Positions 27,380-27,828 of a stretch of 64,000 nt of DNA are shown in pieces. This DNA is from Rhizodiscina lignyota (Eukaryota). The notes below the pieces were generated by a model, which saw nothing but the letters and a program-made list of their open reading frames with translations, searched no databases and was not told the DNA's origin. The stretch lies in assembly GCA_010015805.1 (NCBI GenBank), contig ML978134.1, positions 496,001-560,000 of the forward strand, given 5' to 3'. Positions within the stretch are counted from its first letter, which is position 1. Each line of letters opens with the position of its first letter. The position numbers and the translations under genes are program-made.

Positions 27380-27828
27380 ATGCGTATCAGTGGTATTACC
27401 ATCTCCGCCCTTCTGGGCATCACGGTCGCCAGTGCGATACCTGCTCCAGCGGCTGGTGTTCGAAATGACATGACAAGTAAGTTCTGCTCGCGGCCGGAAT
27501 GGACTGTGGCTGACATTCCCATCTATAGAGTGAGTATGAAGCTCCAGTTGCCGATGACTTCTCTAAGGACATCAACAGGAGGGCGGAAAAGAGGGAAGAG
27601 GATCCATTCAAGTGGGACAAGCGTGAAGAAGATCCGTTCAAGTGGGATAAGACCAAGCGCGAAGAAGATCCGTTCAAGTGGGACAAGACCAAGCGTGAAG
27701 AAGACCCATTCAAGTGGGACAAGACGAAGCGTGAGGAAGATCCGTTCAAGTGGGACAAGCGTGAGGAAGATCCATTCAAGTGGGATAAGACTAAGAGAGA
27801 GGAAGATCCATTCAAATGGGACAAATAG
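27380..27828 (+). CDS. Kex2-processed repeat precursor (KEP; candidate RiPP precursor) with signal peptide and 7 EEDPFKWD(KT)KR units
   Basis: Exon 1 (27380-27476) encodes signal MRISGITISALLGITVASA/IPAP; the last exon reads AEKR then seven repeats and ends at TAG 27826-27828; nucleotide differences between units are synonymous in this frame. Splice path between 27477 and 27578 is ambiguous (115 or 125 aa). Confidence 0.9.
27595..27825 (+). repeat. Coding tandem repeat, 7 units of 30 or 36 nt (last unit 27 nt)
   Basis: Unit GARGARGAYCCRTTCAARTGGGAY(AAGACN)AAGMGN; unit lengths 30, 36, 36, 36, 30, 36 and 27 nt. Confidence 0.95.

Follow-up and report, generated by a model that had tools for sequence, protein, structure and literature searches.

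Which reaction can be expected from a DUF3328 (UstYa) oxidase whose putative substrate lacks tyrosine? The question is raised by a locus of Rhizodiscina lignyota within the window, the stretch of 64,000 nucleotides of contig ML978134.1 (positions 496,001 to 560,000) analysed here, which is fungal DNA with spliceosomal introns. Seven copies of the Tyr-free peptide EEDPFKWD are encoded there beside a UstYa gene. Of the five dikaritins described as of 2022 (PMC10512285), victorin is the only one that is linked through a non-Tyr residue, though about a third of the DUF3328-linked repeats are Tyr-free. With a single oxidase and a short invariant core, the locus is close to the simplest setting in which the action of DUF3328 enzymes without Tyr can be studied. 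Catalogued KEPs run into thousands (2560 of 7878 stand-alone), and this locus is one orphan among them.

The repeat array

The array extends from 27595 to 27828 (+) and consists of seven EEDPFKWD units with KR or KTKR between them and the stop codon TAG at 27826-27828. The units start at 27595, 27625, 27661, 27697, 27733, 27763 and 27799 (+). Each reads EEDPFKWDK, which is followed by TKR in units 2, 3, 4 and 6, by R in units 1 and 5, and by TAG in unit 7. All seven are preceded by KR, the dibasic site expected of a Kex2-processed repeat protein. A first-pass annotation of this DNA had described EEDPFKWD as invariant in all seven units, with KT before KR in four of them, and had listed the codon variants CCA/CCG, GAC/GAT, CGT/CGC/AGA and ACC/ACG/ACT; the invariance, the four KT insertions and every one of the variants were recovered here. 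It had also noted that the ED..DKR frame is retained, and indeed the array resembles UstA, where ED and KR stand on either side of each core.

The same annotation had taken the variation at third codon positions as a sign of selection on the peptide, which is supported by the counts. Within the 27-nt repeat core 7 of the 27 columns are variable, and every one of them is a third-position silent transition. Such a transition is possible at 8 core columns, and seven randomly placed transitions would all fall there with P about 9e-6. Compared pairwise, the repeat codons differ synonymously in 58 cases and non-synonymously in 0; read in the two other forward frames, these changes result in altered residues or stops. 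Because the core varies only silently, the repeat peptide is under selection, or was until recently. The array is single-copy within the 33-Mb genome, and positions 25400-28200 compared with a public contig set, X1, which is possibly the source of the assembly itself, showed 0 other letters and 0 gaps.

Relatives of the precursor were sought in several ways. The repeat-frame search for homologues returned 0 of 2402 candidates at E<=1 for candidate lengths of 54-174 only, and a second match in the own genome (L002, E 0.28) is unrelated to the precursor. No PFKW units were seen among 28 of the 30 phmmer matches from 1.84 billion representatives, these being animal neuropeptide-like precursors and compositional repeats. 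A metagenome scan for DPFKWDK codons yielded 22 loci, all of them single unrepeated matches in unrelated context, and the best score of an Atlas search with the precursor was 0.78, which is lead level only. In the protein searches the precursor had no self-match, although another protein of the window is in NCBI, so the gene seems to be unannotated or withheld. The first-pass annotation knew of no characterised product with this core, and in agreement with it no record was found in the literature or in KEP catalogue supplements, which is a weak negative. EDPFKW and PFKWD had 0 occurrences in literature text, as had the core of a known dikaritin that served as control. The supplements gave 0 matches as well; they include PMC6339444 and the Le Marquer files, which had no control, and the Umemura files are accession tables in which the YAIG control was also 0. 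The pair of precursor and DUF3328 gene is real and apparently an orphan.

Splicing of the precursor gene

Exon 1 of the precursor gene (27380..27476, +; 32 codons plus 1 base) begins with an ATG in good context (CCACCATG) and encodes a signal-peptide-like start and a short pro-region; the hydrophobic N-terminus (hydropathy 2.23 over 11 residues) suggests a signal peptide by hydropathy only. Intron A (27477..27528, +; 52 nt) has the donor GTAAGT, the branch CTGAC (A at 27513) and the acceptor TAG, which is the first AG, 15 nt past the branch A. If intron A alone is removed, the repeats are out of frame and a stop follows after 33 codons. For signal peptide and repeats to share one frame, either a one-base exon or a distal acceptor or a weak donor would be needed. 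As the canonical first intron shifts the frame, a working transcript of the precursor is putative.

A strong donor 1 nt after the acceptor of intron A delimits a candidate one-nucleotide exon, a single A (27529..27529, +). The 49 nt that follow (27530..27578, +) are either a candidate intron B with the motifs GTGAGT/CTAAG/CAG or an acidic coding pro-region. The CAG at 27578 is the first AG, 12 nt beyond the branch A, and its acceptor score of 4.38 is inside the true range of 2.8-8.4. Behind it lies a linker (27579..27594, +) which ends in the KR site ahead of unit 1. Removal of introns A and B around the single base would restore the frame, give a protein of 115 aa and form Thr-Lys-Arg at the joint. 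Strong donors at most 15 nt past the acceptor are present in 5 of 143 canonical-looking introns in 696 kb (at 1, 6, 7, 8 and 13 nt), and intron A is the only one of the 143 with a candidate at 1-nt distance. The four other introns, with a strong donor 6, 7, 8 or 13 nt on, point to possible micro-exons elsewhere in this genome.

Other explanations of the frame were rejected. A single-intron model with the acceptor at 27541 scores -2.06, under all 71 reference acceptors. The distal acceptor at 27547 scores 4.14 but skips 4 AGs, and such skipping occurs in 0 of the 106 reference introns with a branch site; the reference introns include false ones (73 of 179 are without a branch motif). A 170-aa ORF that starts at the same ATG and needs no splicing is absent from the protein collection, and in its frame the differences between repeats are non-silent. 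An assembly indel is unsupported as the origin of the frame problem, X1 being gap-free, though X1 may be the assembly source.

The precursor may also have been broken recently by a one-base frameshift near intron A, in which case 27529-27578 would be old coding sequence and no peptide would be made in this strain. The early stop after removal of intron A agrees with this. So does the 51-nt stretch at intron B, which scores as coding with +5.3 bits (56th percentile of coding, coding median 4.67); 6 of 426 intron scores are as high. As a branch, CTAAG is infrequent, too (1 of 106 in the noisy reference intron set). One-base exons are described as very rare, with Fusarium CYP621A and Arabidopsis APC11 as precedents, and a 2026 paper calls its own Fusarium case the first in fungi (PMC12940212). 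On the other hand, a broken gene would make a coincidence of the perfect donor one base on, the branch-like CTAAG, the frame-restoring first-AG CAG and the Thr-Lys-Arg joint, while the repeats are without non-synonymous change and the oxidase gene is intact. A broken precursor is therefore regarded as quite unlikely, and the one-base exon at 27529 is given a chance only slightly below even. If real, it joins a very short list and helps to explain why precursors of this type are missing from annotation.

The UstYa neighbour and UstYa loci elsewhere in the genome

The precursor and the UstYa gene (26623-25748, -) are located head to head in a 6-kb gap between unrelated genes, and the 756 nt between their divergent start codons (26624..27379) are a possible shared promoter. 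The oxidase gene was modelled with four exons: exon 1 (26374..26623, -) contains a transmembrane stretch from residue 44 (19-residue hydropathy 2.43), exon 2 covers 26224..26316 (-), exon 3 (26060..26166, -) contains the first HxxHC motif (HQIHC, residue 145) and exon 4 (25748..26011, -) the second one (HLRHC, residue 176) and the stop codon. With GT-AG introns of 57, 57 and 48 nt a 237-aa open frame is obtained, and the spliced model carries both HxxHC motifs as well as the hydrophobic membrane-anchor stretch at 44. Exon 4 matches Pfam UstYa PF11807 with E 3.2e-18 and 66.9 bits (cut-off 25). Pfam identifies the neighbour as UstYa only, and the BURP domain by which a burpitide locus would be recognized was not found. 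The database matches of the oxidase are uncharacterised UstYa proteins with 32-36% identity across the modelled length; a search of exon 4 against solved structures gave no DUF3328 match, only tetraspanin noise at E>=0.018.

Neither a tyrosinase nor a methyltransferase, peptidase, membrane transporter or transcription factor was found in the 35 ORFs/exons scanned across the window, a scan that short-exon genes could escape, and in the same set no reductase gene was seen beside the pair. The flanks consist of a NatA subunit, a macro-domain gene and HET genes. Two HET-domain genes (32330-33790, +, and 37881-39686, +) bracket a kinase gene just past the locus. At about 29650-29340 (-), 1.5 kb downstream of the precursor, there is a small gene, apparently of several exons, which begins like a signal peptide, has Cys in its second exon and gave no Pfam match. 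By its gene content the locus belongs to the dikaritins, the cyclisation of the product being predicted.

UstYa genes are abundant in this genome: there are 76 matches, located at about 36 places. For each of the 35 other UstYa neighbourhoods, about 18 kb were scanned for single-exon repeats with dibasic sites, a search that cannot see precursors split over several exons. It identified 15 repeat ORFs in 14 of these neighbourhoods, each 0.9-3.2 kb from a UstYa match and with cores very different from one another; the remaining 21 contained no single-exon repeat ORF. Since there are 76 UstYa matches and 21 of the 35 other neighbourhoods are without a repeat ORF, the adjacency of precursor and oxidase gene is no proof of a partnership.

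The repeats of 5 of the 15 candidates are without Tyr, and 4 of these 5 contain Trp and sit 1.0-3.2 kb from UstYa matches. They are located at L079:6010-6564 (-), with two F-G-x-W motifs per unit, at L073:5432-6076 (-), and at L058:1429-1620 (+) and L082:3628-3879 (-), the last two containing Cys also. A further signal-peptide ORF (L117:7228-7731, -), 1.1 kb from a UstYa match, encodes acidic repeats without any aromatic residue. Tyr-rich repeat precursors were found at L062:2330-2842 (+), L068:5066-5737 (+), L071:5220-6086 (-) and L122:2372-2809 (+); some of these show EA/EP spacers, one has Cys-bracketed cores and one has K-x-K-R linkers like KTKR. The repeat precursor at L059:6393-7076 (-) is broken by a run of N which hides the repeat count. 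When 50 C-terminal UstYa pieces from this genome were placed in a tree (64 columns), the branching was not resolved and the Trp-associated enzymes did not come together; a tblastn ranking had the paralogue of a Trp locus in first place, but it is skewed by intron number, and the tree did not bear it out.

In the literature, Tyr is reported for 65.6% and Trp for 20.5% of the repeats of DUF3328-linked KEPs (n=1758), in comparison to 38.2% and 24.5% for KEP repeats without DUF3328, and His-His and Trp-with-Pro types are among the abundant DUF3328-linked repeats (PMC7329392). As Tyr occurs in just 65.6% of these repeats and 5 of 15 candidates of this genome lack it, Tyr-free cores are common and have already been noted in the literature.

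The repeats could be released as unmodified linear signalling peptides with the UstYa neighbour being incidental. Linear KEP peptides ending in Trp are documented (PMC9769878), the 76 UstYa matches fit a chance neighbour, and Trp is described as unlinked to the presence of DUF3328 (PMC7329392). An alpha-type pheromone precursor was rejected: the units begin with EE without an XA/XP spacer after KR, and a UstYa gene adjoins. There is no Pfam pheromone match, and the Atlas MF_alpha cluster reached 0.77 only (lead level). The head-to-head arrangement 756 nt apart within the 6-kb gap likewise argues against an incidental neighbour. DUF3328 genes are reported to show a position peak directly beside KEP genes and are almost never found by pheromone precursors, 98.6-100% of pheromone-type precursors being without DUF3328 neighbours (PMC7329392). 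Linear release is thus improbable.

Predicted chemistry and comparison with known systems

The first-pass annotation concluded from the missing Tyr that the cross-linking must be unlike that of the known dikaritins. This does not follow. The core of victorin contains Lys and Phe and is not known to contain Tyr. Its ring is formed from the C-terminal Phe side chain to an internal Leu (PMC9233826), and about a third of the DUF3328-linked repeats are Tyr-free. A cross-link as such is not implied either, since desaturation of Pro and Asp, hydroxylation and halogenation are reactions of DUF3328 enzymes, too. They are copper- and oxygen-dependent and include the hydroxylase CctR, the halogenase ApnU and a cyclase, and their HxxHC(x)nHxxHC copper site is similar to the one in plant BURP cyclases (PMC12435403). 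Three phomopsin DUF3328 homologues give dehydro-Ile, dehydro-Asp and dehydro-Pro, the latter two being assigned to PhomYd and PhomYe (PMC10880069). Chemistry unlike that of the known dikaritins is possible, not implied.

We infer a pathway in which expression, splicing, cleavage, core boundaries, the action of the oxidase on the peptide and the Trp anchor, and with them all of the chemistry, are predicted. The precursor would enter the secretory pathway via its predicted signal peptide. According to the processing rules described for Kex2, Kex1 and Ste13 (PMC9769878), Kex2 would cleave past each KR and Kex1 would trim the basic residues, releasing EEDPFKWD from units 1, 5 and 7 and EEDPFKWDKT from units 2, 3, 4 and 6. 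In the same compartment the membrane-anchored copper oxidase would attack Pro, Phe or Lys at an unactivated C-H, abstract the H and close a ring onto the Trp indole, at N or C. Host peptidases would then strip the acidic EED leader and leave cyclic PFKW(D), a core start at Pro being assumed by analogy with UstA. Trimming of DP by a Ste13-like peptidase to give FKWD, as suggested before, is a weak proposal: Ste13 removes N-terminal XA/XP (PMC9769878), and since the Kex2-cut unit begins with EE it probably could not reach DP alone.

The pathway is supported by the selection on the peptide, by the intact UstYa gene 756 nt off with both HxxHC motifs, and by the four further Tyr-free repeat ORFs with Trp that adjoin UstYa matches elsewhere in this genome. 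A single DUF3328 suffices in the four-gene asperipin cluster (PMC6514808). A Trp-anchored ring is favoured because Trp is the sole easily oxidised aromatic residue and its spacing fits stephanotic-acid cores. BURP cyclases form bonds between an aliphatic carbon and the N or C of the Trp indole, for example Leu2-Trp5 in QLLVW and QLKVW (PMC11253845), and their x-x-x-W spacing equals that of P..W in PFKW. Against such a ring stand the Trp frequency, which is not enriched with DUF3328 (20.5% vs 24.5%) while Tyr is (65.6% vs 38.2%), the many non-cyclising DUF3328 enzymes, and the oxidase's database matches, all uncharacterised. An example of a Trp-only DUF3328 cross-link was not found in the parts of the literature examined. 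On balance our tentative reading, with a likelihood somewhat short of even, is a minimal two-gene dikaritin-type locus whose oxidase closes a ring on PFKW(D) with Trp as the anchor, as in the plant burpitides. The full combination, a stand-alone two-gene pathway in which one DUF3328 links Trp to an aliphatic carbon independently of Tyr, closing a ring on a core of four or five residues, and a one-nucleotide exon creating a Kex2 site is the only route to the mRNA, is rather unlikely.

The same oxidase could be non-cyclising and desaturate Pro/Asp, hydroxylate Lys/Phe/Trp or halogenate, so that a modified linear peptide would result. PhomYe and PhomYd are precedents for dehydro-Pro and dehydro-Asp (PMC10880069), Pro and Asp are both present in the unit, CctR and ApnU are precedents for hydroxylation and halogenation (PMC12435403), and no tyrosinase is among the 35 ORFs scanned. 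However, the single DUF3328 protein is the cyclase in the asperipin (PMC6514808) and epichloecyclin (PMC10540207) clusters, and we consider a purely linear product unlikely. Trp is oxidised more easily than Phe, and in the predicted core Phe adjoins Pro at the start, with little room for a ring; both count against a ring without Trp. Such a ring could be closed through Phe as in victorin (PMC9233826); alternatively, the N-terminal Pro could be bonded through its nitrogen to an aromatic ring, following the proposal for GigB, which would join the first-position Pro to the Tyr ring in cores with a conserved Lys (PMC10540207, citing unpublished NMR). A ring without Trp appears distinctly improbable.

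The closest known systems include two fungal clusters with a single oxidase. The asperipin-2a cluster of Aspergillus flavus (aprA, aprY, aprR, aprT) likewise combines a multi-core secreted precursor with a single DUF3328 and no tyrosinase (PMC6514808), but its FYYTGY core is closed by Tyr ethers, whereas the locus here is without Tyr and has no reductase or transporter seen. Epichloecyclins (gigA, gigB, gigC, kexB) share the single DUF3328 cyclase, the first-position Pro and the conserved core Lys (PMC10540207); they differ in a near-invariant Tyr and in a SET methyltransferase and an own kexin in the cluster, neither of which was seen here. UstA and the phomopsin precursors have ED and KR flanking the cores, a signal peptide and DUF3328 neighbours (PMC6514808), but these pathways require tyrosinase, several DUF3328, methyltransferase and peptidases (PMC7329392, PMC12048977, PMC6514808), and their Tyr-Ile ether is impossible in a unit without Tyr or Ile. 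The subgroup was originally defined by five genes (PMC12048977). Of the features by which it is recognized, namely tyrosinase, methyltransferase, several DUF3328 and peptidase/transporter, none was seen among the 35 ORFs scanned, where genes with short exons only could escape.

Victorin from Cochliobolus victoriae is alike as a dikaritin closed via Phe without Tyr (PMC9233826, PMC10512285), but it is heavily modified, chlorinated and made by a larger gene set. The plant burpitides serve as a functional model only. In lyciumins and stephanotic acid a copper oxidase with a similar His site ties the Trp indole to an aliphatic carbon in a short ring (PMC12435403, PMC11253845), but a BURP domain, a plant pathway and a pyroglutamate N-terminus set them apart, none of the comparisons made here showed homology, and the precursor locus is not a member. 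If the oxidase links Trp, DUF3328 chemistry would be extended toward these compounds, and a two-gene Trp-ring pathway would be the fungal counterpart of lyciumin/stephanotic-acid chemistry. Asperigimycins are reportedly built by several DUF3328 oxidases from Trp and Tyr, with Tyr required. By its title, the corresponding paper describes a fungal RiPP with an indoline-containing scaffold (Nie et al. 2025, as listed in PMC13608438). The locus is a further example of the known fungal KEP and DUF3328 pathway type, in which the absence of Tyr is not unusual, and by analogy it would work like a minimal asperipin- or epichloecyclin-type locus.
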